Shown: one piece after another, positions 1 through 32,752 of the stretch
How the letters are laid out: each line of letters starts with the position of its first letter
How positions within the stretch are numbered: position 1 is the first letter of the stretch
From: Thelocarpon superellum
Taxonomy: Eukaryota
Assembly: GCA_026025795.1 (NCBI GenBank)
Contig: JAPEUG010000070.1
Span: forward strand, 1-57,360
DNA length: 57,360 bases
Direction: 5' to 3'
Translations under genes and position numbers: made by a program
The notes under the pieces: model-generated
Database searches by the model: none
What the model saw: only the letters and a program-made list of their open reading frames with translations
Told to the model about the DNA's origin: nothing

Positions 1-3000
1 TACCACAACACAGGCCACATGACATGGCCATTGACCTCACAGAGGGAGAGCCACCATGGGGGCCCCTCTACAACCTATCAGCTACAGAGCTGAGTGTCCT
101 CAAGGACTACGTGGAAACCAACCTAGAAAAGGGGTTCATCCAGCATTCCAAGTCGCCAGCAGGAGCCCCAGTCCTCTTTGCGCCTAAGCCAGGTGGGGGA
201 CTGCGACTCTGCGTGGACTACAGGGGTCTCAATAAGATCACCAAGAAGAACCAGCACCCACTGCTATTGATCAGCAAGTCGCTAGATCGACTCTCACAGG
301 GCAAGGTGTTTACCAAGCTCGACATACGCGCTGTGTACAACCTGATCTGCATCAAGGACAGGGATGAGTGGAAGACAGCCTTCCAAACAAGATATAGACA
401 CTTCGAATACCAGGTGATGCCATTTGGGCTCATCAACGCCCCTGCTACATTCTAGAGCTATATCAATAGAGGACTAGCAGAATACCTGGACAACTTCTGT
501 GTAGTATACTTGGACAACATTGTCATATACAGCAAAGTCAAGGCCAAGCACATGCAGCATGTGTGCAAGGTGCTCAAATGCCTCCTACACCTCGGCCTAT
601 TTCTCAAGCTAGAAAAGTGCCAGTTCAATGTCAACAGAGTCCCCTTTGTGGGGTATGTCATCACACCTCAAGGGGTCCATATGGACCCTAGCAAGGTGGA
701 AGCTGTTGCAGAATGGCCAGCTCCCAAAACAACAAGGGATATCCAATCATTCATTGGATTTGCAAACTTCTACAGGCACTTCATCAAGGGCTTCGCAGAG
801 CTCGCACAGCCACTCAATGCGCTGGTGAAGACACCAAGCAAGAAGTCGAACACGCCTGTGGTGTTGATGCAGGAAGCTCGCTGCTCCTTCAAACAACTAT
901 GCGACGCCTTCACCAAAGCACCAGTCTTAGGCCACTTTGATCCCTGCCTCCCCCTTCAGGTTGAGACAGACGCCTCACAGATAGGCATCTCAGGAATCCT
1001 GTGCCAGCAGCACTAGGAAGACAAGAGGCTACACCACCAATAGCAACCCATTGTGTTCTACTTGCGCAAGCTCAGAGATGCTGAGTACAACTACAATACA
1101 GGCAACCTGGAGATGCTAGCAATTGTCACAGCGTTTGCACAGTGGAGACACTACCTCCAGGGTGCAGCACACCAGATCGAGGTGGTGACAGATCACAATA
1201 ATCTCCACACGTTCACCTCAGCTAAGACGCTGAGTGGACACCACAAGAGGTGGTATAGCGACCTATCTGAATATGACTTCTGAATCACACATCGACTAGG
1301 GAGACTGAACCCAGCTGACGCTCCATTGAGACATCCAGACTACGAGCAAGCCGCTGCCCCTGAGCAGGGAACTCCCATGTGGTTCATCGATACCATGGCT
1401 GGCCACGACCAACCCCATGCGATGGGTGAACCAGGCAGAGCAGCAGCGCTCGCCCTAATGGTTAGCAGTGGCAGCCATGTGTGCATTACACTGCGACGAA
1501 CAGTGATCGCAGCATCACATGCTGAGACAGCTTATGGCAAAGCTACAAGCAATTTCTGCAAGGTCCTTGCAGAACTGCAGCAAGCAGACCCTGACATTGT
1601 ACATATGACACAGAAGGGCTTCCTGCAAGACAATGCCAATACATCAACACAAGGATGCAACAACCCTGCAGTGGTGTGGAGCAAGGACACAGACAGCCTC
1701 GTGCTCCACAAGGGGTGCCTGTACATCCCTGCTCAGGGAGCAGGACGCTTGGAGGTTATGCAAACCCACCACAACAACCCTTTAGCAGGGCACTTTGGTG
1801 TACACAGGACTACAGAGCTGGTCTAGCGAAAGTACAGCTGGCCTACTGTGGCCTGGGACATCGAGGAGTATGTCCTTACCTGCGCCATGTGCAGACGAAT
1901 GAAGCCAGCAAGGCACAAGCAGTATAGAGAGCTACAATTGCTTCCTCCACCATCAGAACCATGGAAGGACCTAACCATGGATTTTGTCACTGACCTACCC
2001 CTGAGTGGTAGCAGTGGGAAGGCCTACAACTCCATCTTAGTCATCATGGACTGCTTCACCAAAATGGTGTGCTACATCGCGGTTCGCAAGACAATCGACA
2101 CACCTGAGCTGGCAGATGTCTTCATTGAGCAGGTTGTTAGCAGATATGGGCTACCAAGCTCCATAGTCTCTGACAGAGGCACAGTGTTCACAGCAAGCTT
2201 CTGGTCTGCGCTGTGCTACCACGCAAGGATCAAGCGCCACTTGAGCTCTGTGTTCCATCTGCAAACAGATGGACAGACAGAACAACAGAACCAGACGCTT
2301 GAGCAATACCTTTGTAGCTACATCAACTGGCATCAAGACAATTGGGTACAATGGCTACCCCTAGCCAAATTCTCCTACAACAACAGTTGCCACACCTTGT
2401 TGGGAGTATCGCTGTTCTATGCGATGTACAGCTACAACCCTGTGCTCAACCTGACTAGGAATCCACCCCCTCGCGAGGTCCCAGATGTCATGCAGAGGGT
2501 TAGCCACCTACAGGAACTACAAGGGGAACTCACACAGCAGCTCCAGGAAGCCCAGAAAACGCAGGCCAGATACTACGATCGCAAGACAAAGCGAATGACA
2601 TACGCAGTCAGACAGCAGGTGTGGCTATCAGCACACAACATCTGCTCTGCAAGACCAAGCAAGAAGCTTGATGTGAAATACCATGGCCCATTCCGCATAT
2701 TGGAAGCAGTAGGCAGGCAGGCCTACTGATTGGACCTAGGGAGCAAGCTGGGCAAGATACACCCTGTGTTCCATGTCTCCCTGTTGGAACCCCACAGGCA
2801 GAGAGACAACAGCGATGAGGAGCAACCAGGCCCCATCCAGATCAACAGCAAAGACAAATGGGAAATAGAGTCCATACTAGCAGAATGCAAGCAGTATAGG
2901 AAGCAGCTCTACCTCATACAATGGAAAGGCTACTCAGAGGCTCACAACTCCTGGGTGCCTGAGGAAGACCTGCTACACTCACGAGACCTACTCAACAAGT

Positions 3001-3074
3001 TCAAACAATGTCAACATGAGTGTCCTACAGCTTCTACAAGACAATCACAGGCACGACGCCAGGCAGTTGATTAA
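1..3074 (+). pseudogene. pol polyprotein (RT-RH-IN-chromodomain) with multiple in-frame stops
   Basis: ORFs 24-455, 510-1016, 1053-1283, 1326-1826, 1848-2729 and 2730-3074 share one frame separated by TAG/TGA stops. Catalytic YLDD reads YLDN at 507-518. Confidence 0.93.
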
Positions 3075-3236
3075 GAATGGATTCAGTCCCTCTGCAGGGA
3101 AGGCGCAGCAACCTAGGAAGCCAGTGGCATGTGGGCTTAGCTCCTAGTGGCTGGGGGCCCAGGGCCCAACCACGCAGCAGGAGATACAAAGATCACCTCA
3201 ACAGGAAAGGACCTGCAAGGTGTAACCAACAAGCAG

Positions 3237-4176
3237 CTAGTTGTCAGCCAGAGGACGACAGGAGGCCTCGGCTCTGTCAAGAGCCATGTGGGAAGCGCTG
3301 GACGCTGTTCGGCTGTGTGGGGTGCGAGGAGTTGCAGACTGCAAGGCCTGGTGGCTAGCGCTTGGGGATGGTTCTGAGGTGATTGTCCCCCCTGAAGGAC
3401 CTTGGCTTGGGGTTGAGGTGATAGACGACAGAGACAAGGGAGCGTCTTGGGTCAATCTGTGCCCATGTCCGCAACGCCCAGCAGATCGAGAGCTGGGGTT
3501 TGTGCTGGGGTTGACTCTGCCAATTGTGAAACCATGCACTCGAGGAGCGGCCTCACCCTCAAGTGGTTTGTCCAGAAGGTCTGGGTCCTCATCAGGACTG
3601 AACAGGTGGACTGCAGGGAATCGATTCTGCCACAATGTGAGCGACACCCAGCAAGCAGCAGAGACAACGCAGACGCCTACCAAGTAGCGCAGCTGGTTCA
3701 GGATCTCCATCAGGAGGAAGTTCGAATGCTCAGTCGCAGCAAGAAGAGCGCTGCTGTCACGCTGTCCACGCTTGTTGAACTTGACAGCAGAACGGAACTT
3801 CGAGATGTGGAGCAGTAGGCTAGACCTATAGGTCTCTAGCTGTGATTCTGCTGCAATGGCGTCAGTAGGAGGATGATGGAGCGAGTTCATGTACTGCTCT
3901 TGCAGCTGGAAGATGGTGTTCATGTGTCCCACAAACTTTGTGGGGATCTAGTTGACGACGACGAATCAGTGCAGCTACGCAGTAGAGCAATCGACATACT
4001 GAGAGACAGGGGTGCCCAGCGATTCGGCACCTATCGCACTTCCTATACAGATTAGGCTTATGGCACCTATGGCTGTGGTTGTGGCCAATCCACTTGATGC
4101 AGTGTTGACAGGTGCTCTGATCCAACACAGGAGGCGGGCCAGGCACAGCCACCTGCTCAGGGAACACAGCAGACAT
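3237..4176 (-). CDS. Antisense cargo gene inside the retroelement; N-terminal Zn2Cys6-like motif, ~277 aa, exons 4176-4000, 3947-3681, 3626-3237
   Basis: Introns GTATGT..CTGAT..TAG (3999-3948) and GTAGGC..GCTCAC..CAG (3680-3627) join the exons in frame. Motif is Cx2Cx11Cx8Cx2Cx6C. Confidence 0.7.
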
Positions 4177-4514
4177 TGTGAGGTTCAGCGAAAGTGGAAC
4201 AGAGGCAGAAGCGGATTGATGGAAGCAGAACAGGAGCAGAACAAACACAGGATATCCTTGAACAAAGAAGCTGCAACGATTGCAGATCGAGATCCTGGTT
4301 GACGAAGAAGCTGCAGAAGAAGCAGAGTGTCAACAGACCCACAACAAATATCAACAATGTGCGAATTAGCAGCAATTCACCACAACACAACAACAACATG
4401 TTGCCCTAGCCCTACAGCGCTATTGACAACCACCCCACAGGGCTATCCAGTTCAATAGCAGCAGGCGAATAGCTGTGTGCGCTCCTGGAACAGAGCACTA
4501 AGGAAGGGGGTAAT

Positions 4515-4771
4515 TGTGAGGCTGGGAGCTCCACGCCTCGCCACGAGGATAGGAGTGATCATGTGATGGCCATGTGATGGTCACATGATACAGCATGTGA
4601 CCTGGCACACTGTATATAAACCGAGTCCTGCTGTGAGCTAGCAGAGCCCCAGTGTTCAACTCAAGTAACACGAGGAGGCTAGTCATAGGTCTATGAGCCC
4701 TAGGAGCCATGGAGTCAACTCCATTGACTATGTCTACTGTTTCCGCCTAGCTGTAGGCCTTTGTCATCACA
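4515..4771 (+). repeat. 3' LTR (257 bp), preceded by polypurine tract
   Basis: TGTGA...TCACA inverted termini, PPT AAGGAAGGGGG ending at 4510, and a TATA-like TATATAAA near 4613. Confidence 0.85.
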
Positions 4772-6120
4772 ATGTTAGTATTATGTTCAAGCAGGCAAGG
4801 AACCTACTGGAACCAGTGATAGCACACAGAGTCTAGTAGCAATTCCATGGAGAACTTGAAGTGCTCATGAGGTTGTAGAGGATGTGTGGGGTGGAGCTGG
4901 CGCTGGAGCTCATGTCTGTGATGTAAGTGGAAGGCCACTAGAGCAAGGAGAAGAGCAACAAGGTGGGAGCAATGAGAAGCCTCCATTGCTGCAAGATTGT
5001 GAGATCTCAGTGTTGGAGGTGAGGAAAAGCTGGATTGGAGCTCCAGAGCTCCCTCCCAATTCCATCATTCAATCCATATATTGCCTATTATAGACTAGTG
5101 GCTACACTATTCCTAAATTCACCAAAAACTGCTATTCCCAAATAGCTCTTCCAAACTTCAGTGACCAGTGGCAAAACCACTCTAATAAGGCCATGCTACT
5201 GAAGTACAGATGCATCGTGAACCCAGGGACGTGAGTTCGGTGTGTGTTTCATCAGAAGCGTGCTGTAGTCGGCGTCGCGCTCACGTAGAGTTGGTGCGAC
5301 CAGACAGTTGTCCTGCGTCCCACACACCGGGCTCGCCTGGCGCAAGGCGAGACCGCGTAGATGGGAAGATGATTTCCCGCTATTTATAGTGGGTGAGGGC
5401 CGCTATCGGACTGCAGGATCCAGGGTCCCAGGGTCGATTGCGACAGGCCATTAGACCCGCCATTAGACCCGCGTCGCTCGACCCCTTTTAGCCACAATGG
5501 GCAATGAGCTCGCGAATAAGCGTAGCTGCTGCATCCACGGTGTTCGCCGTCCACCGTCCGGCCCACGCGGACCCCCCCTCGCCCTGGCCGGCCCGCTGGG
5601 TCCGGACCTGGGTGCGTCGGGAAGAGAGGGCGGGCGAAATCCGTGGCGGTCAAGACGACTACGAGGGACGGGGACGAGGCTTCATGATCGACGGTCCAGG
5701 GAAACCCTGCACGCCGCCACACCGGCCCGTGCGCACCGCGCGACCTACCATTCCCTCCACTTCCATCCCCCGTACCTCGTGTTGCAGCTGAGACCGATAG
5801 TCCATCCGTGGTAGTCTACATAGATTGGCTAGGGTTAGCTGAACATCGTGGCCATGGGTGCTCATTATTGTATTCACCTTCAGTAGTTGTGTACAGTGAA
5901 CCCTACGACACGGCCCAGACCACTTGAGTGTCGTCTTATTCACCACAAAACAGCTCCGTGTGCGCGACCACGTCGCCTTTCTTTACATCCACTCCCTCGC
6001 GCGCACTGCCCTCCGACCTGATCTGATCCTTTCTTCACCCCGGAACCGCTCTCTTTTCGCCACTCCCACCCTTCTGCGCGCTTCACCTCCCACTTCACGA
6101 TCCTCACTTCTCCCGTCACG

Positions 6121-7435
6121 ATGCTTGTGCGATCTGTCCTTGGTCGGGCCGTGAAGGGCGCGACAGCGACCCGTGCTCGTGTCCTGGCCGGATCTCTCCA
6201 TACGTCGGCGCCCGTCTGGCAAGAAAAGGTGGCCGCGCGGGAGGTGCCGGTCTACACGTACACGAGCGAGATGCATCCGGTCGCCACGAGCTCCCTGGCC
6301 GGCTCCATCAGCAGCCGCCCACCCATTGCCACGACGCTACCCGTCGATGAGGCCAAGTCCGCTTCGAGCGTGGACATCACCGAGCCTGTGGACGAGACCC
6401 AAGACGTGGTCGGCCTCAAGGACTCCGTGTATTCCGCTATGCCGCACACGCTGAAAAACTTCACGTTGCAAGGCAAGGTTGCCGTCATCACCGGGTACGT
6501 GTTCCGTGTGCTGACTGATGTGGTGCCACCTGACGTGATACTGACCTTATGTGGTGGCAGTGGCGCTCGTGGATTAGGCTACAACATCGCCGAAGCTTTT
6601 GCCGAAGTGGGCTGCAAGGCCGTCATCATCATGGATGTGCAGCAGGAGCTGGGTGACAGCGCGGCGGCCGCCATCCACGCTCGTAGCAAGATCCCTGTCA
6701 AGTTCTACAAGGTCGATGTGCGGGATGAGAGCGCGATTGCTGAGGTGGTGGAGAACGCCTCCAAGTCCTTTGGGTCCATCGATGTCGTGGTCAATGCCGC
6801 AGGCATCGCCGAGTGAGTTCCCTGCTCGCTATCACCATTGTGCGCGCGCGAACACACCAAGTCTAATCAAGTCGACTAGCTCCAACATCAAAGCCATGGA
6901 TTACGACACGGATCGCTTCCGTCGTCTCATCGACATCAATGTGACCGGCTCGTTCCTGATCGCACAAGCCTGCGGACGCACGATGATCCAAGCCGGCAAC
7001 GGCGGGTCCATCATTTTCATCGCCTCCATGTCCGGCACCATCGTCAACTTCCCGCAGGAGCAATCGTGCTACAATGCCTCCAAGGCGGCGGTCATCCAGC
7101 TAGCCAAGTCACTGGCGGCAGAGTGGGCGCAACACAACATCCGTGTCAACTGCATCTCGCCCGGGTACATGGATACCGCGCTGAATCGTGTGCCGGCCCT
7201 GGATGCGCAGAAACGCATCTGGACGGAGAAGACGCCGCAGCAACGTCTGGGGCAACCGGACGAGCTAAATAATCTTGCGGTGTTCCTGGCCTCGAGCGGC
7301 TCTTCATTCATGACGGGGACCAACTGCATCATCGACGTAAGTCTCCACCGCTGACCTCGGGTCATCTCCACATGTGTGTGCGTCGAGCGCGCCTCGCTGA
7401 CATGAATCTGCCAGGGTGGTTACACACTTTACTAG
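6121..7435 (+). CDS. Short-chain dehydrogenase (D-arabinitol 2-dehydrogenase-like) with probable mitochondrial presequence; 3 introns
   Basis: TG|GARGLG Rossmann motif, NAAGI, ASMSG, YNASK, VNCISPGY and terminal DGGYTLY after splicing. The N-terminus is Arg/Ala-rich. Confidence 0.9.
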
Positions 7436-7999
7436 AAGCTTCCCGACGGGCCCTCTCAGCTGTCCAGCCTCTCTGCAGCGACGCGGGCCTCTTCTGCTCT
7501 GCCCCTTCTGCCTCTTCATGGCTCCATGAGCCCCTTGCCTTGCTTTTCACTCCTCTCTTCCCACCCTACCTAACCTAGATGAATCTTTTCGACGGGGCCA
7601 TTGATGGCTGACGGGGCTTTCTTCCTGCGTGTCCTGAGGGGTGTCGCTTGGGCGGAGGGTGCGCGTTTCACACAAGCAGTCGAGTGGATCAGTTGGTCGG
7701 GCGGATACTCGGTCAATTGGTCATTCGGTCGGTCGGGCTGTTCGGGCGGCTCGGGCGGTCGAGCCTCGATAGAATTCAATCTGATAGAAGGGAATAGATC
7801 GTAAACGAGACGGCTACGGGATGGGACGGGATGGAGGGAACGGGAGCCCGTCGTGTGATGGATGGACGGGCCTGCTTCCTCCGTTTCATTGATAGATGGT
7901 CAACTACTGAAGATTTCCGCCTTCGCCCCCTTGTGGTATCATGGTGCTCGTGGGCTAACGATACGTGACGACCACTCAAGACGCGCGTATCTCATGGGA

Positions 8000-9025
8000 T
8001 CACGTCGGCTTGATCCTCCACCCACCCCAATCATCTTCCTCCAGGTCCTCGCTTTCGCTCTCGGCCTCGTCTTGTGCCCCGCTGCCACCGTTCGCAGGTT
8101 GCTGGACGTCGGCTTCCATCGCCATGGCGCCTCCATCCTCAGGTTCCTGTTCGTGGGCCTGTCGCCGCAGCTCTTCTCTCCGCTCCTTCAACCGCCGGAC
8201 CTTCAGCTCCAGCGCCTCCATCTCCTCGAGCTCCATCTCCATCTGCCGCGCCGCGTCTTCCTTGTCTCCCTCGAGCTCGGCGTCCTGCCGTTCTTTGGCC
8301 TGAGCATTGGCCTCGGCGGTTGATCGCGCGGCAAGTTCGGCGGCGGAGAGGGCCGGCGCGGAGATGGTCGACGGCGCCGTTAAGACACTTGGAAGCTTGG
8401 TGGGGCCAGATGAGACCTCGTCGGCTGTTACGGTGGCAATCTCGCGCTCAAAGGCCGCGTATACGTCCTCGTCGACTGTCTGATCGTTCGCGGCATCGGT
8501 GCTGTCGTTCCGAGGCGCAGATATCGTCGGTGCCGTCTGAGGAGCGGACGATGGGTCATCGAAGAAACCGGTGGGGAGGCCTGAGCCAGAGGCAGACGCT
8601 GTCGATGTCTCTTCCTGGTCCGGGCTCACCTCCGGCTGCTCTGCTGCTGATGTCTCCAGGGTTTCGGGCGCTTCCTCATCCCGCTGTCCTCCGTCGAAGA
8701 ATCCTTCCGGTAGGCCCTTGACCTTCTCGCTGGCTTTGGACCTTTTACTACCCCCGTCCTCTCGCTCATCGGCTTTACGCTTTCGACTTTCCACCAGTGG
8801 TGAAGCGGTCGACGAGCGGTTGGGAAGGCCGTGTCCCCCGCTTTCGTTCTTCAGTCGTTCCGCGTGCCGGCTGGATCGGACATGGCCGTCCCACAGTGAC
8901 TCGGATTTGATCTGGACATGGCAAATGAGGCAGAGGAGCGCGCCCGTGGTCGAGTATGTTGCATGGGGGTGGGTGATCCGACGAGCGTTGCGCTCATTGC
9001 GCAGCAGAGAACGAACGTCGGTCAT
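8000..9025 (-). CDS. C2H2 zinc-finger/coiled-coil protein, ZNF830/CCDC16-like
   Basis: N-terminal CxxC...HxxxxxH finger, LPEGFFD/LPTGFFD motifs and an acidic coiled-coil C-terminus. Confidence 0.75.
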   Translation of the reverse strand: MTDVRSLLRNERNARRITHPHATYSTTGALLCLICHVQIKSESLWDGHVRSSRHAERLKNESGGHGLPNRSSTASPLVESRKRKADEREDGGSKRSKASEKVKGLPEGFFDGGQRDEEAPETLETSAAEQPEVSPDQEETSTASASGSGLPTGFFDDPSSAPQTAPTISAPRNDSTDAANDQTVDEDVYAAFEREIATVTADEVSSGPTKLPSVLTAPSTISAPALSAAELAARSTAEANAQAKERQDAELEGDKEDAARQMEMELEEMEALELKVRRLKERREELRRQAHEQEPEDGGAMAMEADVQQPANGGSGAQDEAESESEDLEEDDWGGWRIKPT

Positions 9026-9725
9026 GTTAGGCAGGAAGCTTGGCTGGTGCAGACATCAGCATGACGATATTGATGCTGCAGCTCAGCTCTCGTCTTCAGG
9101 CGCCGGTCTACGCTAACGTCCGTGGGTCTAGCGCCTCGCGAGCTCGCCGAGGTCGCCTATTGTATCCTCTCATCCATGGAAACATGTATTCGTGCCCAGA
9201 CGTACGCGTGCTCGAACTTGTCATCCCTCGTCAAACTTCCACCTCTTCTAAAAAAGTTCTCTACCTTCTTGTCCTTCGCGGCCTCCCGAAATTTTCCTAC
9301 TTTACGCCTTTCCACTCCTGACGGCTCTTGCATCAAACTCATTCAGCGGGTTGGCGAAGACGCGTTCGGTAACGTGCCGAAATCTTTTCAGCGAGGGGCG
9401 TGGGAAGACCGGGTCCACGCCGAGTTGTCCGTTATCCGCCTCCCTGGTCGCGTGAAGTCATATCAAGCCTTGGATCAACGCCTGACCAGGCGGCTGCGAG
9501 CGTTCCGATTCATCCTCAGTCTCCTGTCGGGTCTTCTATGGATGGTCGTCCTGCGGTTGACGGATGATGGTCGTGACCGAGTGTCTTGTCTACAACATCT
9601 TGTCACTGGCATATCCTGTCTGTAGATCAAAGCTGCGAGGTCAAGACCATAGCGGTCCCTGTACCCGACCCAGCTCAGCCAGCCAGCACGATATCGTAGC
9701 ATCATAGATCTTGGCTGTGGACATC

Positions 9726-12530
9726 ATGAGTGGTAAGCAACCAGGTGCCATGTCCCCTCATCTCCACCGTCGTGGAGTGGCCCGACGCTCTTTCCCCCCA
9801 AGGCGTGTCAAGCGTGGCTAACATGTCTGCAGACGAACCGCGACGGTCTGGCCGTGCCACCAAAGGCCAGCATACCAAACCCCTCGAGACATCGGCCGAC
9901 GCGTCGAAGCCGATGAAGCCCAAATCGGCCAAATCCAAGAACACTCCCGACGACGAGGACGACGAAGAGGAAAATGACGCCATCATCCGGTGCATCTGCG
10001 GCACCACGACGGAGGAAGAGGATGAGGATGAAGAGCGCATGATGATCTGCTGTGATAGATGTGCGTGTTGGCAACACAATGAGTGTATGGAGGTGTCTCA
10101 GGATGAAGACGCGCTGCCCGAAACCTATCTGTGCGAGCTCTGTAGTCCCGAGGACCACAGGACCTTGCTGGAGAAGGTGGGACGAGGCGAAAAGCCTTGG
10201 GAAGAGCGAGCGAAGCAGCCGAAACCTGGCAAGAAGGGAAAGAAGGCGACGACGAAAGGTAGAGGGGGACAGAGGGGCCCAGGGGACGCGAAACCGGAAG
10301 TGGTGGAGAATCTCCAGGGGCAAGTCGGGAAGGAGCAGGCGAACCATGGCGACGATGCAAATAAAGACGGCCTCACCAGCCATGCACCAGGATCAGATCT
10401 TTCCAACGCCATGGGTCTACCTGCTGGGCGGCGCGCCAGCGGGGGAAAGAGAAAGCTACGGGGGAATGGCGACGCAGGGACGCCCGAGGCTCAGCCGGTA
10501 GGTTCTCTGGCATTCAAGGGGTGAAGAGGCCACCTAACGCGTACTAGGTTCCATCGGCCAAGGTGCGAAAGATCTCGGGCCCGGACGTCAAAGGGCCAAA
10601 AGCGGATGGCAATGGCTTGACCAGCCCAAGCGCCGGAGATGCACCTCCGTCAGGCCTGGAGAGCATCCCGAACCTCACTCGTCGCAAGACGGCCGGCGTT
10701 CTAATCAAAGCCATCGGCGAGCAGATCGCGTCCGCTCAGGCCAATGGATCGTACACGCTTCCTGACGAGAAGACGTTGGAGGACGTGGCGCTCCAGCTGG
10801 GGTTGGAGGTGGAAAAGGCCGTCTTCAGTCACCACTCCAATCATCCTGGGGAACCTTCGACGGAATACCGTGTTCGTCTCCGATCGATGATGTTCAACCT
10901 CAAGAAAAATCCGGCCTTGCGGGATCGATTACTCCATCAGCTGCTCTCTCCCGATGAATTCTCCACCATGTCTACGGATGCGATGGCCAGCGAGGAGCTA
11001 CAAAAGCGGACGGCGGAGATGAGGAAGGAGACGGAGAAGCAGCATATTCTTATCAAAGACGACGGACCCCGAATTCGACGGACGCACAAGGGCGAGGAAT
11101 TGGTGGGCGACGAGCGGGAACATGGCGGCGGCAACGAGTCCATCTTCGCCATTGCGCCCGCACGTCGACGAGAGACAACAGTCGAGCCCCAATCTCCGAG
11201 TCTTGCCAGTCCAATGGGTGGTGCTATGAGTCCGGATGGATCTGACGTGAAGGCAAGCCCTGGACGGGAGGGATCGCCCGATCCGGCCCGAAGCGCGACC
11301 AAGAGCGAGACGAAGGCATCACCGCACGTGGGCGGGGGTGAGCGGCGAAGGACTTCGGCCTTTAACATCCAAGATGTGTGGTCGACGGTGCAATCGGCCA
11401 GTGCCGGAACCGAGGCAAAGGAGCCGGGTTCATTCGATGCGCCCAGCGAGACAGCGGTCAGCATTCGCGCGCGTCGCGACGCCCCCGAGGTGGCCATTGA
11501 CTCGGAGATTGACCAGCTGCTGAACGATGACGTCGAATCTCCACCATATTCCCCGACGGACAATGAACCGGACGAGTCTGTCATCTGGCGAGGCAAGGTG
11601 GCGATGGAGGGACAGGCAGAGTTCAGCGGTACGGCACGGCATGTCGGGGGGGCAGACCTGAGCGCGAGCGTGTCATGGCCGACGCTCATCCCCTCGGTCA
11701 TCAACGTCGACGGGCGCATCTCGGTGGACCGGGCCAGCAACTACCTCTGCGGACTCCGGTACAGCAAGAGCACCGACGTGGTGGTGGTGTCCGTGAGCGC
11801 CGTGGGGGGCGAGGCGGCGCAACAGAGCTTTGCCAAACTGTGGGACTATTTCCACGCGCGCAACAAGTACGGCGTGGCGGGGAGTTCGTCTCTCCCACCG
11901 ACGGTCAAAGACGCCTACATCATCCCCGTGGAGGCGGGGATCGAGAAGCTGCCGGAGTTCATGGAGATGCTGGCGTACATGTCGATCGAGTCGCCACGGA
12001 CCGAGCGCATGCTCCTCGTGACATTTGTGGTGCGCGCCGGCACCACCACGCCGTCTGCATCGGCAGTGGCCACGCCACAGCAACCGGATGCCACGGCGTT
12101 GTCGACCGTGACGCCGATCAATCCCACACAGTGGATCAATCCTCCCGCGACGACCTGGCCTCAGACGACTCCGGCTCCCACCAAGGCATCCACACCCAAT
12201 GAACAACACGCCGCTCCCACCAACCCAGCAACCAACCCATCCCTGTCAACATCGACTCCATTGCCATTTTCCGCACGAGCCGCGTCAATCCTTGGTGCTC
12301 TGGCCCACACGCGCGTCGCGAAAGAGGTGTTGTCTCAATCGACACCGCAATTGGGCTCAGCGACAGCAGGACCTCCACAAGGCCAAGGTCAAGGCCAAGG
12401 CCTCAGCGACAAACAGTTGCACGTGATCCGCGACATTCTCGAGCGTGTGCCCGCTGCTCGTGAAGATTTCGCGCTCTTTGCTCGCTTTTTGAGCGATGCT
12501 TCGGCGCGTGAGGGGGCCGGTGCGTCCTAG
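9726..12530 (+). CDS. BYE1: Transcription factor Bye1 (PHD, TFIIS-central, SPOC); 2 introns
   Basis: Micro-exon ATGAGTG|gtaagc..cag gives MSDEPRRSGRATKGQH. PHD (IRCICG..CDRCACWQHNEC..CELC), TFIIS-M (RSMMFNLKKN) and SPOC (IWRG..GRI..KDAYIIP) follow. Confidence 0.9.
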
Positions 12531-12932
12531 GCTACTCAACCGGCGAAAGGATAAAGCGGCAGGCAAGGCAAGGCACGGAAGATGATGGAAGTTTCGTCAT
12601 GTCTGGCTCCGAGTCTTCGGTTGTCTTCTATCGTATCGTATCGTCTTGTCTCGTCTTGTCTCGTCTTTGTTCTACTGTAGGATAAGATGGGACGAGCATG
12701 GGAAAGGTAAGGACAGGGTAGGACAGGGTAGGATAAGACTGCTCTTGCATGATTCGTTCGTTTTGTTTCCATGGGGCTCGAGAAGAGTAGGTAGGCATTA
12801 GTTATCTTTGCTGTATACATGCGTATCATCCCTTTCTCTCTCACTCCAACCGTGAGACGCAGATGATCTGATACTTACGTACATACATTCGCCGCCGCCG
12901 CCGCGCGAGACCGCTTAATATTCCCCGTCCTT

Positions 12933-14996
12933 CTACTGATTCTTCTTCTCCCTCCCTCTCCCATCCAAACCAAGGAAGCGCACCACCCACGCACTTCCGA
13001 CGCGTCTTGCCAGAGCAATCCGCCCCCTCGCACGCCGGACATAGCTCTTCAACCCTCTGCTCTCGACCTCGTCGGCGCCAACGAAGCGGCGCACGAGCAG
13101 ATTAAACACCATGCCGAATGCAAGCGCCATGACGGTGCTGGTCAGGATGATTACGTTATATGGCATGCTGAAGTCTGGCGTTGGAAGGGATAGGAGCAGG
13201 CTTGTGGTGCGGATGTATGTCGTTCCCATCCTTACTTCTCCCCCTCCTCCTTCTCCTTCTCTTGATGATGATGATGAGGAGAGGGAGGAGGGCGAGGATG
13301 GGATGGTAGAGGAGGAGCCTCCTAACACCCTTATGATAGCACCCGCCACGTCGAATCCACGATTGGCGTCCGGTGGATACTCGGTGTAGCGTAAGATGGC
13401 TTTGTCAAAGTCGTAGGTCAATGTGGCGGTGGAATTGGGAGGGAGGGAGAGCAAAATCTCTAGGTGAGTCGGTCGGTGTCGATCCAACGCCGGACGATAG
13501 TAGAGTTCTTGGATGAGCGACGGTTCGTCGTGGCCGAGCGCGTCCTGTGAGTGTTTGCCGCCTGACGAGAGTTTGGCCTGCAGGGTGTGCAGATACGGCT
13601 TCATGAACCACGGCAGCGATTCTAGATAGACGAAATCCACCATGTCCGTGCTTGACGGGTTCGTGAGCAGCGTCTGCACCCCGCCTCGCTCTTGCCCGTG
13701 TCCCGTAAAGGATCGTTCGGCGTACAGTGGCGGTCGAGGGATTCCCACGGGAGGAGTGGCGGTGTGTTTGGGCAGAACGAGGTCGAAATCATTCGTGCCT
13801 GGCCCCGTCAGCCTGAGGCCTCGCGGGTTGCGGCTGCTCCTACCTGGCAACTCGAAGCATCGTAATGCCCCGTCCTGGTACTTGCTCTCGACCGCGCCGG
13901 CTGATAAGAAGACGGGTCGTGCCTGGTTTACTTCGATGCACACGGTCTCTGACTCAGGCCCATCCTGTTCCGTCAAGGGACAGGATCCTTTGATCTTTCG
14001 GCCAAAGATTTCCGTCAAACTCCACCCCGGCTCCGTGCCATCGTCGAGAGGAAAGCACGTGTCGTGAGAGGCGTACGGCTTGGTTGTGTCGCACACCAGC
14101 TCCTCCGATGGCAACGGGCGAGGGATAGGGTTGTCTATGACCGTTAACTCTTGAGCCATACAGTCTCGTCGAATGACACCCACCCCTGTGCCGTTTGGAC
14201 CGTTCAATGTCCAACACCATGTCAATGGTCTGGTCAATCTCCAAGATACAGTCCTTTCGATCTCCGGAGCAGAGGGGCCGCACATCGATGGACATACTCT
14301 GCCATGAGGCATCGAAGAGTTTGTGGCCATCGAGCAAGCTGGAGATCCCGGCTTTGCCCTTGCACGGCAAGAGCTTGAGGAACGGCGTCAGGTTCTCAGT
14401 GCACACAGGTTCCCGTGGCAGGGTACCATGCAGGAGATGGAGGTTGCGGAGAGTCGAGTTAAGGTGGTTGCCTGATGGCTGAAAGGACATGACTGGTCGG
14501 ATGGTACGGGTGGAGTCGATGAAGTTCAGCGAAGCGCAGAAGAGACCCGACAGCGCGTTGGTCAAGGTGAGCCAGCGGGCATCGGCCCTGGCGAGAGTCA
14601 GCGCCTGGGCATATAATCGGCGGTAGCGAGCACTCACTCCTCGTCACTGTTGGCCTCCACCCACGCCCACAGCTCGACTCCCGTCCCTCCTTCCCGAGCT
14701 CCCCCCCAAGGGCGAGCGCCCCAGCTCTCGGCATCCCACCGGCCGAGACTGAAGCGTAGATGCAGTTCGCGTGTGTTGGCGTGCTGTAGGATCTGGCCAA
14801 GCGATCGAGGAAAGTATCGGAAATTCTGTTTCTCAAAGGACGAGGAAGATGCGTTGCTGCGGAAGTTGAAGGAGGCTAGAAGGGACGAGGGCGCCAGAGG
14901 TCGGAGCAGAAGCCGTTCATGGTACTCGGTCGTGGCAGCGGAGATCACGAACAGCAGAGTCCCTACACATAACAGGGGATGAAATGAAGGAAACAT
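12933..14996 (-). CDS. GPI16: GPI transamidase subunit Gpi16/PIG-T; 3 introns
   Basis: Signal peptide, ELHLRFSLGRWD, LSGLFCASLNFID, VCTENLTPFLKLLPC, EYPPDANRGFD and LPTPDFSMPYNVIILT with a TM helix. Confidence 0.95.
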
Positions 14997-15262
14997 CACC
15001 GCTCTGCCACCGCCACGCTCACGGAGCGCCTCACGAGGGCGAGGTCGGGCGTGCCATTCCTCCGTAGGTGTTGCTTGGGACCGGCTCCTTGGCTTTCGGG
15101 ATTCTGTGGCGCGTCCCGTCGCCTCCATTTAGGCGCGGGAGACGCGCAGCGAAATCTTTCGGCTCACCCGACGTCGCTATACGCTTCCGTGGCTATCCCA
15201 CCGCAGCTGTCGAATGAGCCCCAGAAAGTCTTGGACAGAGCACGCAGATCCAGAAGCTCATC

Positions 15263-16317
15263 ATGGCTGCGGAACAGAGGAAACTCTTAGGTGGGTCCCC
15301 AATTCCAGCCCATTCACCCCACGCACGCTGACCATCTTCCACAACAGAGCAGTTGATGGGCGCCGGCGCTTCCTCTCGCTCCTCGCAACTCGCCATCACG
15401 GACCCCAAAGTGTGCCGATCTTTCCTCGCCGGCACCTGTCCTCACGACCTCTTTACCAACACCAAGCAAGATTTGGGACCATGTCCCAAAGTGCACTCGG
15501 AGCCGCTCAAGATCGAATATGAGAGCTCGCCGGAGAACAAGCAGAAATACGGATTCGAATACGACTACATGCGCGATCTCCAGAAATACATCGACGACTG
15601 CAATCGCCGGATCGACACCGCACAACGGCGACTGGAGAAGACGCCGGACGAGATCAAGCAGACGAACAACCTGGCAAGAGGCCCCGCCCGATCCATTCCC
15701 ACTCGCATGGTCGACGCTAACATGCAGACTGCCTACAGCTGACTCGAATCTCCGACCTGACCAAGACAATCAACAGCGGGCTTCTCGAGGTCTCAATCTT
15801 GGGGGAAGAAGGCTCGGTGTCGCGAGCAGTCGAGGAATACTTCAAGATCAACCAAGCGAAGCAGGCGCGAGAAGAGCGCGAGCGGGATCTGAAAGCGCTA
15901 GCGGACACGTCGGGGCCATCTGGGCACCAGAAGTTACAGGTGTGCGACGTATGCGGGGCCTATCTCAGCCGGCTCGACAATGATCGACGCCTGGCGGACC
16001 ACTTTTACGGGAAGATGCACCTGGGGTATGCGCAGATGCGCAAGACGGCCGAGACGCTGCAGAAGGAGCTGAAGGGCCGGCCGCCGCCGAACCGACAGGA
16101 GGACATGGGGCCGGGCGGGCGTGAGGACCGCGATAATCCCTATGGCGACCGGGAAGGGGGCGGCTGGGGCGGCCGTGGTGGAGGTGGAGGTTACGGCCGA
16201 GGGGGGTTCCGGGGGAGTGGCGGCGGAGGAGGCGGAGGCGGAGGCGGAGGCAGTGGCTTCGGCGGGCGGGGCGGCTATCGAGGCCGGGGAGGAGGCGGAT
16301 ACGGAGGGCGGTGGTGA
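15263..16317 (+). CDS. LUC7: U1 snRNP protein Luc7; 2 introns (second GC-AG)
   Basis: MAAEQRKLLEQLMG, VCRSFLAGTCPHDLFTNTKQDLGPC, LQVCDVCGAYLS..DHFYGKMHLGY and an RGG tail. Confidence 0.95.
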
Positions 16318-16551
16318 GGCTTGTTTAGATACAGTGGTTCATCCGTACGTAGTTTATACCAGCGCCGGCGTTTTCGGACCAGACCACGGAGCCAGACCGC
16401 GGACTGACTGCACGCATACAACCACGCGCATAAGCCACGCCAGGGGAACACGCAGCGTTCCATCGTTGCGTTGTCTATTCTTAGAAGCGTGTATTGTAGT
16501 GGACATGGAATCATCGTAGCGGCGCGCCGCGCCTTCCCCGCCATTCTCGTG

Positions 16552-17903
16552 TCACGCTGGCGTCGCCGACGGCGTGCCCGTCTCCATCTGATCGGCCCAC
16601 GTAGTGCTCGGGTCGGCGCCAGAAGGAGACACGAGCGGACCTTCGGCTGGTTTGGGCGTGTCCCCTCGGGTGGCGGTCTGGGGCTCTGTAGGCTTGCTCT
16701 CGGGCGTCGGTGCGGGCTGTGTGGGCTGCGTGGGCTTCGTTGTCTCCGCCGCTGCCGCAGACTCGCTCGGCGCTCCTGCTGGCTTCGTGGCTGGTAGAGC
16801 GGGAAAGTCGGCCTCCGCCTTGGTGTCGGGTGCAGAGGTTTGCGTGTGGTGGGCCTGGTGAGGACTGCCTGCGAAGCGTCCCCCCCGTCCTCGTCCCCTG
16901 CCAATGCCCCGATCGCCTCTGCCCCCTGGCCCTCGAGCCGCGTAACCCCCTCGCTCGTTCTCGGCCGGGCCGTCGTGGTTGCTTACGCCGCCGCCGACGA
17001 CGCCGCCGTAGGCGCCCCGGCGGAATTGTGACCCCGTGCTGCCTCGTCCGCCCACTTGGTCCTCATCCTTTTTCTCGGCATCCCATTCTCGCCCCTGCAC
17101 CGCTTTCATCTTCCGCAGCCGGTTTCGCTCGCGCTCACCCTCCATCACCTGTCGGTTCTGCCGTTCTTCCTTGCGTTTGGCCTGTTCTTGTCGCTCTCGC
17201 TGCTGGAACGATGCTTCATCTGCTTCGGCCCGACGGTGGGCTTCTTCGCGCGCTGCGTTCTTCAGTTTGATCGAAGCAAGTCGCGCCGAGAGCTCGTCCT
17301 CGCTCAATTTGGGCTACCGACGGTCAGCTGGGTAGTGCGACATGAGCTGTGTGGCTCCATGATTCAAGACACCCACCTTTTTCACCCCGCCCGTCCCACT
17401 CCGATCTCCCTTGACGGCGCCAGGCCGTACCTCGTCCTTGGCGGCCGTCGCTGGCGCCGCACCTTCCTTGCTCTCGTCACTAGGCACGACCGGCGCCGCT
17501 TCTCTCCGACCACCTCGGCCCCGACCTGCGGTGCCTCTCTCGCTCGATTCTCGTGGTGCGTGTCCGCCTCTTCCTCGGGGCGCGGGCGGAGGCACGGGCT
17601 GGGAAATGGGCTCGGCGACGGGAGTAAAGTCATCATCAAAGAGGTCGTCGGGTGCTCTAGTTTGTGCAAACTCGTCGACGATATCATCTTGCCCGACCTC
17701 GAGATATGTAGGTGTGGGCTCGAATGCCGCGCTCGTCGGATTCAAGTTATGGGAACTTGCTCCATTCTTTGAGACCCACAGTGGGTGATCGTTAGCTAGA
17801 GGGCGGCCAGGCGTCTCGTGCACCCGGGGCATACCTGCTGCTCCTTCACGCCCTCTTTCTGGGTCGGTGGTGGGGGAGGGTCGGCGTATTTGGAAGCTTC
17901 CAT
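16552..17903 (-). CDS. RGG-rich/coiled-coil fungal hypothetical protein; 2 introns
   Basis: Spliceable exons (CAG|gtatgc; AAG|gtgggt..tag), DDLFDDDFTP, a charged coiled coil ending GREWD, RGG boxes and FPALP. Confidence 0.75.
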
Positions 17904-19401
17904 GAAGATATAATGGTGGCGGTGCGAGTAAATGTGTGTGGGGTACGTCAATTTGATCATACGAGGACGGGCATTGCGAGCAAGTAGATGCTGGACACGG
18001 CCTTACAAACGGTAGGGAGAAAAGTGATGGATGCAGGCACGATTACTTCTTACTGTTCTTGCTCCTCGGTCGCGGGGTTCCGAACAACTTCCTGTCGTTA
18101 TGTGCTTTCTACCTCCCCGTGTACGCAGTCCGAAGTGCTTCGGCGAGCGGGGGGAATTTGTTCGGTGTTCGCTTGAAACCGGCGGCCGCACGAGTCCTAC
18201 GACGCGGGAAAGGAGACGGCGCCGACGACTGCGGGGACGGAACGAAGAACATGGACCCTCGCCTCACCAGACAGAGCACTACGGCCCTGTCAACCTCCAC
18301 AGACCCACCGTCATGTCTCCGATCTCATTAGGTAGATGGATCCAGATCCAGTCCGTAGAGAAGTGGCTACTTGGGTGCTACGTCTTCTTCCGTATAAGAC
18401 AGCGACAGCAGACCGTCACAGTAGAGTTCCATTAGGTCTTAACATCGGTGGTAACGTCTGTCGAGTGACGTCTAAAATAATTGACTACTGCCCCTTGTGT
18501 TGTCCATTTCCTTCATCTTTCACCTTTCATTTCCACCACTTCCCAGATCATGGCATCTTCACCCGGCGATTTCACCCTCGGGCAAGATTGTGAAAAATCT
18601 CCGGGCCAGAAAGCGCCATTAGGGTGCTGCCACGTCTTCCGACTCCCCGTCAGGCCGTGCACAAAGACGACGCTGTGCCGGGAAATGGAGGTCAGTCATG
18701 TTGTCTTCGAGACCTCTCGCCCAGCCCCGTCCGCAACACCTACTCAAACGCGGCATCGTCGGGGGTGACGACAATGCTGATCCCAAGTGGGCCAGACTCA
18801 CCGCCGCTGGCGAATCATCACTGTATGTAGAGAGCACACCAAGGCGTAGACAGTCCTCACGCGAGGCGTGATGTCGAGCTTCCTACCGAGCTTGACACCG
18901 CCGCTTGGCCTGACCTGGATGAGGATGAGAGCCATCGAGGCATCTCGTCTGATATGATCCGGATATGATCCGACTATGAAGACGATCCAACAATGCGCAC
19001 TTTCTTCGGTGGCTCCGTAGAGCAAAATCAGACGGTCTTGCCATTCGACATGGCCGCTGCTGGATATGGAGGTGCAACGGGCATGCTCCCCACCGCCAAC
19101 GCATCGTGTCGGAGCCTCGCCAGAGTGATGGTCGTGCAGCTGCATCTGCAGGGATGAGCCGTCGTTGGAAGTGCGAGGAGCGCGATGCTATATTCGTCCA
19201 AGCGCCGTACCCGTGTATCCCTGAACCGCAATACGTCGAGAGGCATTCCATGGCTATAGATAGATACTCTTGGCAAGCATGGATGGGCTGATGTGTTCCT
19301 AGAGGTAGACATATCATCGGGTGGATTAACGTCTCGAAGGTCGATATTGGTGCTTCATTGGTACAAGTATATAACTTCAGACGACGGATGGACGCCGCCG
19401 C

Positions 19402-21357
19402 TCAGGCCTCGCCGTCATTGGTTTGCCCTTGCCCGTCACCACCCTCGTCGTCGCCAGCGCGGTGCACTTCCACCTCCACCGCCAACTGTGCTTTCAATCC
19501 GTGCTTGCCGACGGCCATAGCGCGCCTCAGCTCTTCTTCTTCCTCGTGCAACCGAGAGCGACCCTGTTCCAGAGCACCACGTTGCCTTCGCTTCTCCTGC
19601 GCCACCATGGCCTCCCGTGCCGCGAGCGCCTTCATCCGTCGTTCGCGATCTTCTTTCCTCTTGTTCACCGTCGCGGCATCTTCCTCGTCTCCATCTAAGC
19701 CCGTCCCGTTTGACGCTGGCGGCGGTCCAAGGGTGGATATGTACGTCCTGACTAATCCGTCTCGCGCCAAAGAGTCAATGGAAAGAAAGCGGAGGTCGGT
19801 CCGAAGCGATGTAGGAAGGTTGCTTGAATCCGTGGCGTTGTTCAGTATCGACAGAGGCTGAGACTTGAGCAACGAGGTGAACTCCGATTTCCGTGTACTT
19901 TCCGATAGCTTGAGCCCTGGAGACGTAGGTGTCAGGGGATGCCCGCAGGGAGAGAGACATTGACGCACGAGAGATATAACCCCGATACCATTTCTCTCGT
20001 TCTTTGTCGGAGAGTTTGACATCTCGCATCTCAGCCTCTTTCCGGTATTTCCGTTTGAACTCAGGCCAATAGAGCTTTGGTGTGGCGTGCTTTTGCATGA
20101 AGTCGAGGTACGGCAGGCGGGGCTGAAACGAATGAATGGAGCAAGCTTGACAAGGGGAGGGAGATGGCTCACATCTTTCTTTTCCTGCTTCGCTTTCAAC
20201 TCTTTGGCATGTTGGATGCGTTCCCGGCTCCACTGGGCCCAGACCTCCTTGCGTGACTTCATGGTAGGCAGGACGGTGTAGCGATCGTCGTCAATGATTG
20301 TCCCTTCTTCCACAACTTTCTCCCACGTGGCGTACGGACTGATGCCATGGTCGTCCAGTAAATCCTTGAAGAGACCCGTTGCATCTTCCTCGGTGAAAGG
20401 AAGTCCCTCGGCCCCTTCGTCATAAGCGTCGTCATCTTCGCCGGCGCCGTATTCTTCGGGATCCAGTCCATAGTCTTGGCCCATAGCCTGGAGCTGAAAG
20501 GCAATATCATCCTCGTTGAATTCCTGCGGCCCATTCTCTTCCTGCCCCTCCACTCGGGGCCGTTTGACCAGACCCTCCTCGTCCTCCTCGTCCGTTTCTT
20601 CGACCTCTTCATACTCATCACTACCCCCGTCTGGAGGCGGCGAGGCTATGGCGGCCACCGCGGGCTGGTGGGCACTCGACGGCTGTGCAGAATCCGCCTT
20701 CGTTGGGTCCGTGGTTCTAGAGGGCGCCTGCTCTTGCTGCGACTCGGACCGTTCAAATTCATCAACGGCCTCCTGCAGTTCGGACGGAATTTTCCAGAAG
20801 CTCTCGCCCTTGTCGGGATGGTAGACAAAACGCCGTCCTAGCTTGGTCTTCACCAGGAGCCATGGACTCTGTCCTGGAAGCCCGTGTTTCGATTTCGGTC
20901 GATCTTCAGGCTGGTGGCCCCGCCGCGACCCATGGTAGTCTCGACCTCCGCGAAAATCACCCCGCCCTCGCCCTCCACGATATCCAGACGGCTGATGCGT
21001 AGCAAAGCGCGCACCTTGCATGAATTGGCTTGGACTAAAGCCAAACGGGCCCCCGCTCGGCCCGGGCACTGAACTTCCAACATCACCTTGGACGGGGGTG
21101 GCGTGTGAAACGTCTGGTCGCGATGGGGGAGCTGGTCGTGTGTAGGTGGATTCCTTAGTCACGGTGTTGTAGTAGTATGAATGCCCTGTGCATCTCTCAT
21201 CAGCTTGGAAAGTGGCGACGAGATGATTGTTGGTGGAGGAGGTACCTGTCGGAGCTTTATGCTCCGTCCATCCAGGCAGGAGGGGCGGCGGCGGTGGAGG
21301 AGCAGGCAGGTCGTTGCCCGATGGGCCTCGCGGCCGATGAGTGGATTTAAGCATCAC
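19402..21357 (-). CDS. WW and FF domain protein (TCERG1/Prp40-like family); ~3 introns
   Basis: WW1 LPGWTEHKAPTG|HSYYYN..STYTRP, WW2 WLLVKTKLGRRFVYHP..SFW, FF domains FKDLLDD..PYATWE and WPEFKRKYRK. Confidence 0.88.
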   Translation of the reverse strand: MMLKSTHRPRGPSGNDLPAPPPPPPLLPGWTEHKAPTGTSSTNNHLVATFQADERCTGHSYYYNTVTKESTYTRPAPPSRPDVSHATPVQGDVGSSVPGPSGGPFGFSPSQFMQGARFATHQPSGYRGGRGRGDFRGGRDYHGSRRGHQPEDRPKSKHGLPGQSPWLLVKTKLGRRFVYHPDKGESFWKIPSELQEAVDEFERSESQQEQAPSRTTDPTKADSAQPSSAHQPAVAAIASPPPDGGSDEYEEVEETDEEDEEGLVKRPRVEGQEENGPQEFNEDDIAFQLQAMGQDYGLDPEEYGAGEDDDAYDEGAEGLPFTEEDATGLFKDLLDDHGISPYATWEKVVEEGTIIDDDRYTVLPTMKSRKEVWAQWSRERIQHAKELKAKQEKKDVSHLPPLVKLAPFIRFSPACRTSTSCKSTPHQSSIGLSSNGNTGKRLRCEMSNSPTKNERNGIGVISLVRQCLSPCGHPLTPTSPGLKLSESTRKSEFTSLLKSQPLSILNNATDSSNLPTSLRTDLRFLSIDSLARDGLVRTYISTLGPPPASNGTGLDGDEEDAATVNKRKEDRERRMKALAAREAMVAQEKRRQRGALEQGRSRLHEEEEELRRAMAVGKHGLKAQLAVEVEVHRAGDDEGGDGQGQTNDGEA

Positions 21358-32661: not shown

Positions 32662-32752
32662 TGTAATAGCGCGCACGTGACCTGGTCACGTGCCCACTCC
32701 TATTACTATCCCAGACTACGCGTAGATTAGCAATTCAGCTCTGATTCCTACA
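32662..32752 (+). mobile_element. 91-bp TG...CA mini-element (solo-LTR/TRIM-like), copy 1
   Basis: TGTA...TACA ends with perfect 4-bp TSD GCCT/GCCT. 85/91 identical to 55821-55911. Confidence 0.8.

Follow-up and report, generated by a model that had tools for sequence, protein, structure and literature searches.

Does the spacer between pol and the 3' long terminal repeat (LTR) of this fungal retrotransposon hold a gene of its own, and does that gene belong to the element? The locus that raises the question lies in 57,360 nucleotides (nt) of DNA from Thelocarpon superellum (assembly GCA_026025795.1, contig JAPEUG010000070.1, positions 1 to 57,360 of the forward strand; "the window" below means this whole stretch), which opens with the 3' part of a Ty3/gypsy chromovirus. 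We answer, with a rough probability of 0.55, that the minus strand of the spacer carries an element-borne antisense additional open reading frame (ORF), and that the element, whose pol and 3' LTR enclose this ORF, is a multi-copy Ty3/gypsy chromovirus of an ascomycete.

The first thing to consider is the structure of the gene itself. Once spliced, the minus-strand frame runs from an ATG at 4176 to a stop at 3239-3237, a length of 277 codons with no internal stop. Its parts are as follows.

4176-4000, minus strand: exon 1, the ATG and 58 codons (177 nt), with a cysteine cluster encoded at 4110-4006.
3999-3948, minus strand: intron 1, 52 nt, GTATGT...AACTAG, phase 0; its branch-like site, CTGAT, precedes the AG by 18 nt.
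3947-3681, minus strand: exon 2, 89 codons, a predicted three-helix unit.
3680-3627, minus strand: intron 2, 54 nt, GTAGGC...TGGCAG, phase 0.
3237-3626, minus strand: exon 3, 129 codons (3626-3240) followed by the TAG at 3239-3237, encoding a tail rich in Ser, Pro, Thr and Ala.

The ATG at 4176 is the first in frame after a stop 51 codons upstream, and it has an A at -3. Six cysteines form the head of the 277-residue product (positions 23, 26, 38, 47, 50, and 57), with the spacing Cx2Cx11Cx8Cx2Cx6C, and two further cysteines stand at 200 and 271; the tail encoded by exon 3 is probably disordered. Please note that intron 2 is itself in frame and free of stops, which leaves 3947-3237 open with or without splicing (236 amino acids from stop to stop), so the frame alone gives no need for this intron.

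The element around the gene can be described in the same way.

3-3074, plus strand: the 3' part of a Ty3/gypsy chromovirus pol (reverse transcriptase, RNase H, integrase, chromodomain).
3075-3236, minus strand: spacer from the stop of pol to that of the antisense gene, the putative 3' untranslated region of the antisense transcript, crossed by colinear contigs of other copies.
4177-4499, minus strand: region that would hold the leader and internal promoter of the antisense gene.
4500-4510, plus strand: polypurine tract AAGGAAGGGGG, 4 nt 5' of the LTR, read directly from the sequence.
4515-4771, plus strand: 3' LTR of 257 bp with the ends TGTGA...TCACA, placed from the sequence and from loose contig ends.

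The pol frame ends in a TAA at 3072-3074 and is interrupted by six internal in-frame stops, namely TAG at 453, 1014, 1041, and 1824 and TGA at 1281 and 2727. Pfam recognizes the chromodomain (Chromo, expectation value E = 7.3e-13), the integrase core (rve, E = 4.8e-9), and SH3_Tf2-1. With X written for each stop, the whole pol frame retrieves 4048 relatives with the set RVT/RNaseH/rve/Chromo, the best at 52% identity, and the order of its domains (reverse transcriptase, RNase H, integrase, and then a C-terminal chromodomain) is that of a chromovirus. The 1440-nt spacer between pol and the LTR is followed by the polypurine tract and then by a TG...CA-ended LTR that is repeated in the genome. 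The antisense gene (4176-3237) sits between the pol stop and the tract at 4500, in the position and orientation of an antisense ORF of the type aORF-3R (Vicient and Casacuberta 2020). The 5' part of the element, including the 5' LTR and the target-site duplication, falls outside the window.

Is the antisense segment really a part of this element? Logan contigs of four DNA runs (X1-X4) from two studies were placed on 1-6500. It is important to remember that summed contig depth is not copy number, and we use it here only as a ratio between the ORF and pol. In X1, the unique flank contig (5158-6500) has a depth of 128.3. Against this flank, the pol bins sum to 3440-6908 (mean about 5800, or ~45x), the antisense-ORF bins to 3336-6558 (mean about 5100-5400, or ~40x), and the LTR bin to 43210 (~337x), so that the ORF/pol ratio is ~0.9. 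Being as abundant as pol, the antisense gene travels with the element. Joints that skip the segment were absent from the contigs of all four runs, and no copy without it was seen in them.

Contigs from diverged copies also run colinearly across the borders in question: the pol stop is crossed by X2 rec12 (2888-3210) and X3 rec20 (2814-3141), the 3' end of the ORF by X1 rec3 (3136-3311), and the border from spacer to LTR is bridged by X4 rec31 (4370-4538). Eighteen X1 contigs come loose before 4515, where their upstream sequences are unlike (agreement 0.38), and loose ends are found behind 4760/4771 as well. These unlike ends at 4515 and 4771, as expected for 5' and solo LTRs, fix the borders of the LTR. 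Taken together, the depth ratio, the lack of any skipping joint, and the colinear contigs mark the segment as a regular component of the interior of a multi-copy element, one that most copies in the family possess, and its location inside the element is well supported.

The first-pass annotation of this DNA had proposed that a gene is carried inside the retrotransposon, and had specified the ATG at 4176, the introns 3999-3948 and 3680-3627, a frame of about 277 amino acids with the cysteine spacing given above, and many stops in the neighboring pol. All of these hold: the gene is there as described, antisense between the pol stop and the polypurine tract/LTR at a depth ~0.9 of that of pol, and pol has its six stops in 3-3074. 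Nor does the LTR at 4515 come from a different element, an outcome which that annotation had named as fatal to its proposal, as colinear contigs run into it.

The next question is whether the open frame is coding. A frame of 236 amino acids was reached in 25 of 2000 dinucleotide shuffles of the 1440-nt spacer (mean 138, standard deviation 32), which makes the observed one moderately unusual. The GC content at the first, second, and third codon positions is 0.54/0.35/0.65 in exon 2 and 0.55/0.39/0.60 in pol. A codon score table was derived from seven long host ORFs in the window; by this table, the score of exon 2 is +0.135, clearly the best of its six frames, pol has +0.109, and the host ORFs themselves range from +0.10 to +0.40; intron 2, read in frame, scores -0.273. 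AlphaFold2 predicts three helices for exon 2 (residues 3-24, 30-54, and 65-88; mean predicted local distance difference test score [pLDDT] 75.5, predicted template modeling score 0.63). A loosened Zn-cluster pattern has a single match in the six-frame translation of the 57-kb window, and this match is the cysteine cluster at 4110-4006. Its status as a gene is, in our view, probable.

Further support comes from P0001, a 246-amino-acid partial hypothetical protein on a 6.9-kb contig of a T. superellum metagenome-assembled genome. Residues 128-245 of P0001 match exon 2 and the opening 29 residues of exon 3, with 96/136 identities (71%) in BLASTP when the 18 residues of intron 2 are counted as a gap, and 96/118 (82%) over the aligned residues; exon 2 alone is 83% identical. 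The 18-residue gap falls exactly on intron 2, and the homologous part begins at the first residue of exon 2 (IPTK), at the same acceptor position. As a gene prediction, this amounts to an independent choice, in another assembly, of the intron 1 acceptor and of both intron 2 sites. The C terminus of an Amidoligase_2 protein makes up residues 1-127 of P0001, which is therefore a gene-predictor chimera in which the end of an Amidoligase_2 gene was fused to transposon exons 2-3 via an unmasked repeat. Annotators should therefore be cautious, because the only database relative of the antisense protein joins a host amidoligase-type gene to exons 2-3 of a transposon gene.

Two other candidates were rejected. 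P0002 (phmmer, E = 9e-8) is a 1705-amino-acid protein built of 57-amino-acid tandem units, and its match is an artifact due purely to repetition; its repeated motif presumably resembles translated sequencing-adapter sequence. A metagenome locus (L001) shows 26% identity with one exact 8-mer seed, has a stop inside the alignment, and has no pol nearby. Scans of prokaryote-genome contigs and viral contigs gave no relative of the antisense protein, and a word search with exon 1 gave no candidate.

How might such a gene work? The minus strand would be transcribed, most likely from a promoter inside the element, no more than about 220 nt upstream of the ATG at 4176; a start deep in the LTR is improbable because five upstream ATGs would then precede this one. 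On the minus strand, 4396-4177 has no ATG and is 65.5% pyrimidine, although an ATG-free leader of 220 nt is not significant at 11 ATG per 1440 nt. The canonical AATAAA was not found on the minus strand of 3075-3236. The two short introns would be removed from the antisense transcript only. As they are not introns in the sense genomic RNA, reverse transcription would copy them and every insertion would keep them; the survival of introns antisense to genomic RNA through reverse transcription is mechanistically sound.

The 277-amino-acid product would then consist of a zinc-binding, cysteine-rich head, a three-helix module, and a Ser/Pro-rich tail. The head could be either a Zn2Cys6-like cluster with a 5-residue insertion or a treble clef or ribbon of the form Cx2C-x20-Cx2C. 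The likeliest role would be to modulate how the element itself is transcribed or silenced, as a small nuclear factor that binds nucleic acid; we infer this role by analogy with Grande GENE23, the TRP28 proteins, and HBZ (see below).

A bolder version of this proposal is that a lineage of chromoviruses of lichen-type ascomycetes evolved or captured its own intron-bearing antisense gene, with a new six-cysteine zinc domain and a three-helix module, whose protein binds the LTR or host silencing components to control expression. We offer this version as speculation and think it doubtful. If true, it would be a transposon-encoded, transcription-factor-like regulator in fungi, analogous to the retroviral accessory genes of the HBZ/Tax type.

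A number of results weigh against an element-borne gene, and we gather them here. By codon score, exon 1 (-0.185) and exon 3 (-0.079) are only marginally the best of their six frames, and the AlphaFold2 model of exon 1 is poor (pLDDT 59). Pfam gave no Zn_clus (PF00172) match at E<=1 and no significant family for any exon, and a sequence search of the PDB with exon 1 gave no chain at E<=10. P0001 is the sole true relative found by a word-index search of 5.8 billion proteins and by phmmer on 1.84 billion representatives, and, as it does not include exon 1, the comparison with this homologue covers no cysteine cluster. Among-copy variants are shown for the best-supported 40 of 731 places.

The comparison with P0001 counts on the same side. 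Over the 118 aligned residues, the window copy differs at 22, all by single-base changes, 17 of them transitions. When 9-10% neutral divergence is simulated, the mean is about 21-23 amino-acid differences, and 42% of the neutral runs with 19-25 differences have no stop. At the rate at which stops occur in pol, 277 codons would stay open with P = 0.20 when the rate is taken per codon and P = 0.30 when it is taken per susceptible codon. The contrast drawn in the first-pass annotation, between a frame that is open and a pol that is full of stops, is thus not significant.

The likeness to Zn-cluster proteins, which had also been part of the original proposal, fared no better. Zn2Cys6 domains bind two zinc ions with their six cysteines and recognize half sites of the CGG type. 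The canonical Zn2Cys6 rule is CX2CX6CX5-12CX2CX6-8C; this expression has no match in the window, where only the loosened form matches. With CX2CX11CX8CX2CX6C, the head departs from Zn2Cys6 proteins in spacing, and it lacks support from a profile or from a solved member. There are certainly points in common with the Gal4-type family (PF00172): six cysteines lie within 35 residues, and the second half, C-x8-C-x2-C-x6-C with Lys-Pro after the third cysteine (Cys38), fits the canonical rule. In Gal4-type factors, the zinc cluster is followed by a helical segment and a Ser/Pro-rich tail, and the same order follows the cysteine cluster here. The first half is different (Cx2Cx11C here, with x11 in place of x6, and canonically Cx2Cx6C), and the 277-amino-acid product is much shorter than typical Zn-cluster regulators, with no fungal-specific transcription factor middle domain found in it. 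With no match to PF00172 or in the PDB, membership in Zn2Cys6 is not supported at the level of sequence. The same cysteines can also be read as Cx2C-x20-Cx2C, a spacing that would suit a single-zinc treble clef or ribbon.

Comparisons with the Atlas and with structures were of little further help. All Atlas scores for exon 1 are <0.9, the best being unnamed clusters at 0.84; DUF3716 has 0.76, and a cluster that is 100% Zn_clus appears at rank 8 with a score of 0.76. All of these are leads only. All Atlas scores for exon 2 are likewise <0.9 (BRE4/FUSC-type helical proteins), below the threshold for recognition. Foldseek on the exon 1 model returned one row at E = 9.7 and nothing usable, and for exon 2 only generic three-helix bundles at E > 0.7. 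A Toxin_17 match of exon 1 in Pfam (E = 0.054) was below the cut-off and was taken as chance. We found no literature report of a Zn-cluster gene inside an LTR retrotransposon.

What state is the window copy in, and what does its decay tell us? At 15 of the 17 transitions that separate it from P0001, the window has A or T where P0001 requires G or C (CGC to CAC, CGG to CAG, CCG to CTG), and this bias from GC to AT indicates that the antisense ORF of the window copy is decaying like its pol. Among copies, C>T (191) and G>A (223) make up most of the differences, as against A>G (75) and T>C (98). The observed/expected ratio of CpG is 0.38 in the element, 0.52 in the ORF region, and 1.05 in host DNA. 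When the element (1-4771) is set beside 5209-20000, its ratio (CpA+TpG)/(ApC+GpT) is raised to 1.52, and its TpA/ApT is 0.75. The loss of CpG from the element looks like deamination of methylated CpG, not classical CpA-directed repeat-induced point mutation. With six pol stops, the window copy is dead, and its antisense ORF is open by luck.

The pol stop at 1014 can be followed in the other copies. The TAG is common to most of the placed depth, and a C is found in only 1371/4891. Copies that bear the stop thus seem to have multiplied, and this would point to amplification in trans or to the duplication of dead copies.

These results lead to the first alternative, in which a piece of a host or foreign gene was captured by the ancestor of the family and has been copied ever since without serving the element, its frame not yet destroyed. 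The divergence from P0001 is compatible with neutrality. Since the neutral simulation reproduces the P0001 comparison, that comparison holds no sign of purifying selection, and it can be explained equally well by neutral divergence of about 9-10%. The missense decay from GC to AT runs in one direction, a pol-like depth is expected for any internal segment, and capture by transduction is among the origins that available excerpts of PMC7264820 discuss for such ORFs. On the other side, the 1.84 billion representatives contain no host homologue besides the element-linked P0001; what is present is a complete architecture (an ATG in good context, two phase-0 introns, and a stop) and not a fragment; and the segment has been kept, without a single deletion joint, through a depth estimated to be worth 40 copies. 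On balance, we consider a captured and useless gene piece unlikely, while giving it the first place among the alternatives.

The second alternative dispenses with the protein altogether. Here, the open frame would have arisen by chance in a non-coding spacer, kept for functions in cis or as a source of antisense RNA for silencing. Dinucleotides that form stops are scarce in the spacer, as the shuffles described above make plain; the codon scores of exons 1 and 3 are weak, no part has a family match, and the introns were freely chosen in the first-pass annotation. The coding signature of exon 2, clear and equal to that of pol, speaks against chance, as does a cysteine cluster with two CxxC pairs that has no second instance in the window. 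The same acceptor and the same intron 2 are used by an independently made gene model of another assembly, and exon 2 is confidently predicted to form a three-helix fold. We regard a chance frame as improbable, if anything a shade more so than the captured gene piece.

The last alternative, an ordinary host gene that chance has placed between a pol fragment truncated at its 3' end and a solo LTR unrelated to it, leans on the position of the 5' LTR outside the window (which puts LTR pairing and the target-site duplication beyond reach) and on the T. superellum homologue adjoining a host amidoligase-type gene, and it is very improbable given that the ORF bins have ~40x the depth of the unique flank, like pol, that a polypurine tract oriented as pol stands 4 nt before the LTR, that diverged-copy contigs cross from pol to spacer and from spacer to LTR colinearly, and that a partial model on a 6.9-kb T. 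superellum contig would fit a repeat that breaks assemblies.

Some further observations concern the element and its surroundings. Inside the LTR, TATATAAA is found at 4613-4620, and a tandem-repeat search detects an 11-nt direct repeat, CATGTGATGGC, in U3 at 4560-4580 (1.9 copies, 100% match). Variants of CATGTGA/TCACATG occur within 4560-4600, just 5' of TATATAAA at 4613. The CATGTGATGGC repeat region is a candidate enhancer or binding site. The tandem-repeat search found no spacer arrays of the Retand type, an Rfam search of 2800-5300 returned nothing at E<=0.1, and self-BLAST of 1-5300 against the window gave no second copy of the element in the window. Just after the LTR, the summed X1 depth of 4775-5208 is 1287-1553, ~10x the unique flank of 128, and in one X1 contig an opposite-strand joint links 4771 with 5184; the element seems to lie in or beside another, lower-copy repeat.

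Elsewhere in the window, two 91-nt direct copies (32662-32752 and 55821-55911) are 93% identical and 23.2 kb apart, and begin with TGTA.../TGTAGG...; they may be a pair of solo LTRs or the LTR ends of another element. At 25734-26835, degenerate direct repeats belonging to two families (114 nt and 73 nt, with 60-75% identity) are interleaved and fall partly within a 367-amino-acid ATG ORF at 26247-27350, which suggests a gene for a repeat-containing protein.

How does an element-borne antisense gene compare with known systems? Additional antisense ORFs situated between pol and the 3' LTR have been reported for maize Grande, rice RIRE2, Silene Retand, and PvRetro13, and Boty of Botrytis cinerea and Sclerotinia sclerotiorum carries an antisense gene, brtn, in the same place, according to available excerpts of PMC7264820 and PMC8365987. 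Excerpts of PMC4227169 give Boty-like elements gag, RT, IN, and CHROMO domains, and the brtn report (2011, Virology 417:248) is cited in the accessible parts of PMC8365987, PMC7264820, PMC4227169, and PMC5987419. As far as these excerpts go, Boty is the closest parallel in kind, a fungal chromodomain-bearing gypsy element with an extra antisense gene in the interval from pol to the 3' LTR. The hosts differ, being Leotiomycetes for Boty and a Thelocarpon-type fungus here. BRTN was not returned as a relative by phmmer (1.84 billion representatives) or by the word index, in both of which its presence is unconfirmed.

The plant cases (GENE23 of Grande, RIRE2, the TRP28 domain of Retand, and PvRetro13) resemble the present one, so far as the excerpts describe them, in the position and orientation of the ORF, in the long spacer between pol and the LTR, in the presence of the ORF in most copies of the family, and in the proposed role of a nuclear or DNA-binding regulator. 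The Grande protein is nuclear and its gene is transcribed from its own promoter, according to a reference title quoted in the accessible part of PMC11963269. The same excerpts place the plant elements in the non-chromovirus Tat/Retand group, with spacers of 3-6.5 kb, whereas here we have a chromovirus with a spacer of 1.44 kb. The word "intron" is not mentioned in the main text of the plant papers, whereas two antisense introns are predicted here. The proteins are unrelated, with no match to TRP28 or any other Pfam family in ours.

A more distant parallel is HBZ of the deltaretrovirus HTLV-1 (human T-cell leukemia virus type 1), which is spliced. It differs from the present gene in that it belongs to an exogenous animal retrovirus and encodes a bZIP protein, with no sequence relation. 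The likeness, by analogy only, is that of an antisense nuclear regulator near the 3' LTR of a reverse-transcribing element, as excerpts of PMC11963269 describe it.

Extra genes of LTR retrotransposons are rarely annotated, because repeats are masked before genes are called, and the excerpts of PMC7264820 present the functions of extra ORFs as open even in the well-studied plant elements. The present family, with an estimated 40 internal copies' worth of depth and hundreds of LTRs' worth, would be a compact system in which to study such functions, be it LTR regulation or counter-silencing. We read the arrangement as one that is already known, including from a fungal chromovirus, and the antisense ORF described here as a further, unrelated member. 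What is new is the combination of an unrelated orphan protein, two clear antisense introns, a six-cysteine head, and a different fungal lineage. A second, unrelated fungal case beside Boty would show that the chromoviruses of fungi repeatedly acquire antisense accessory genes.

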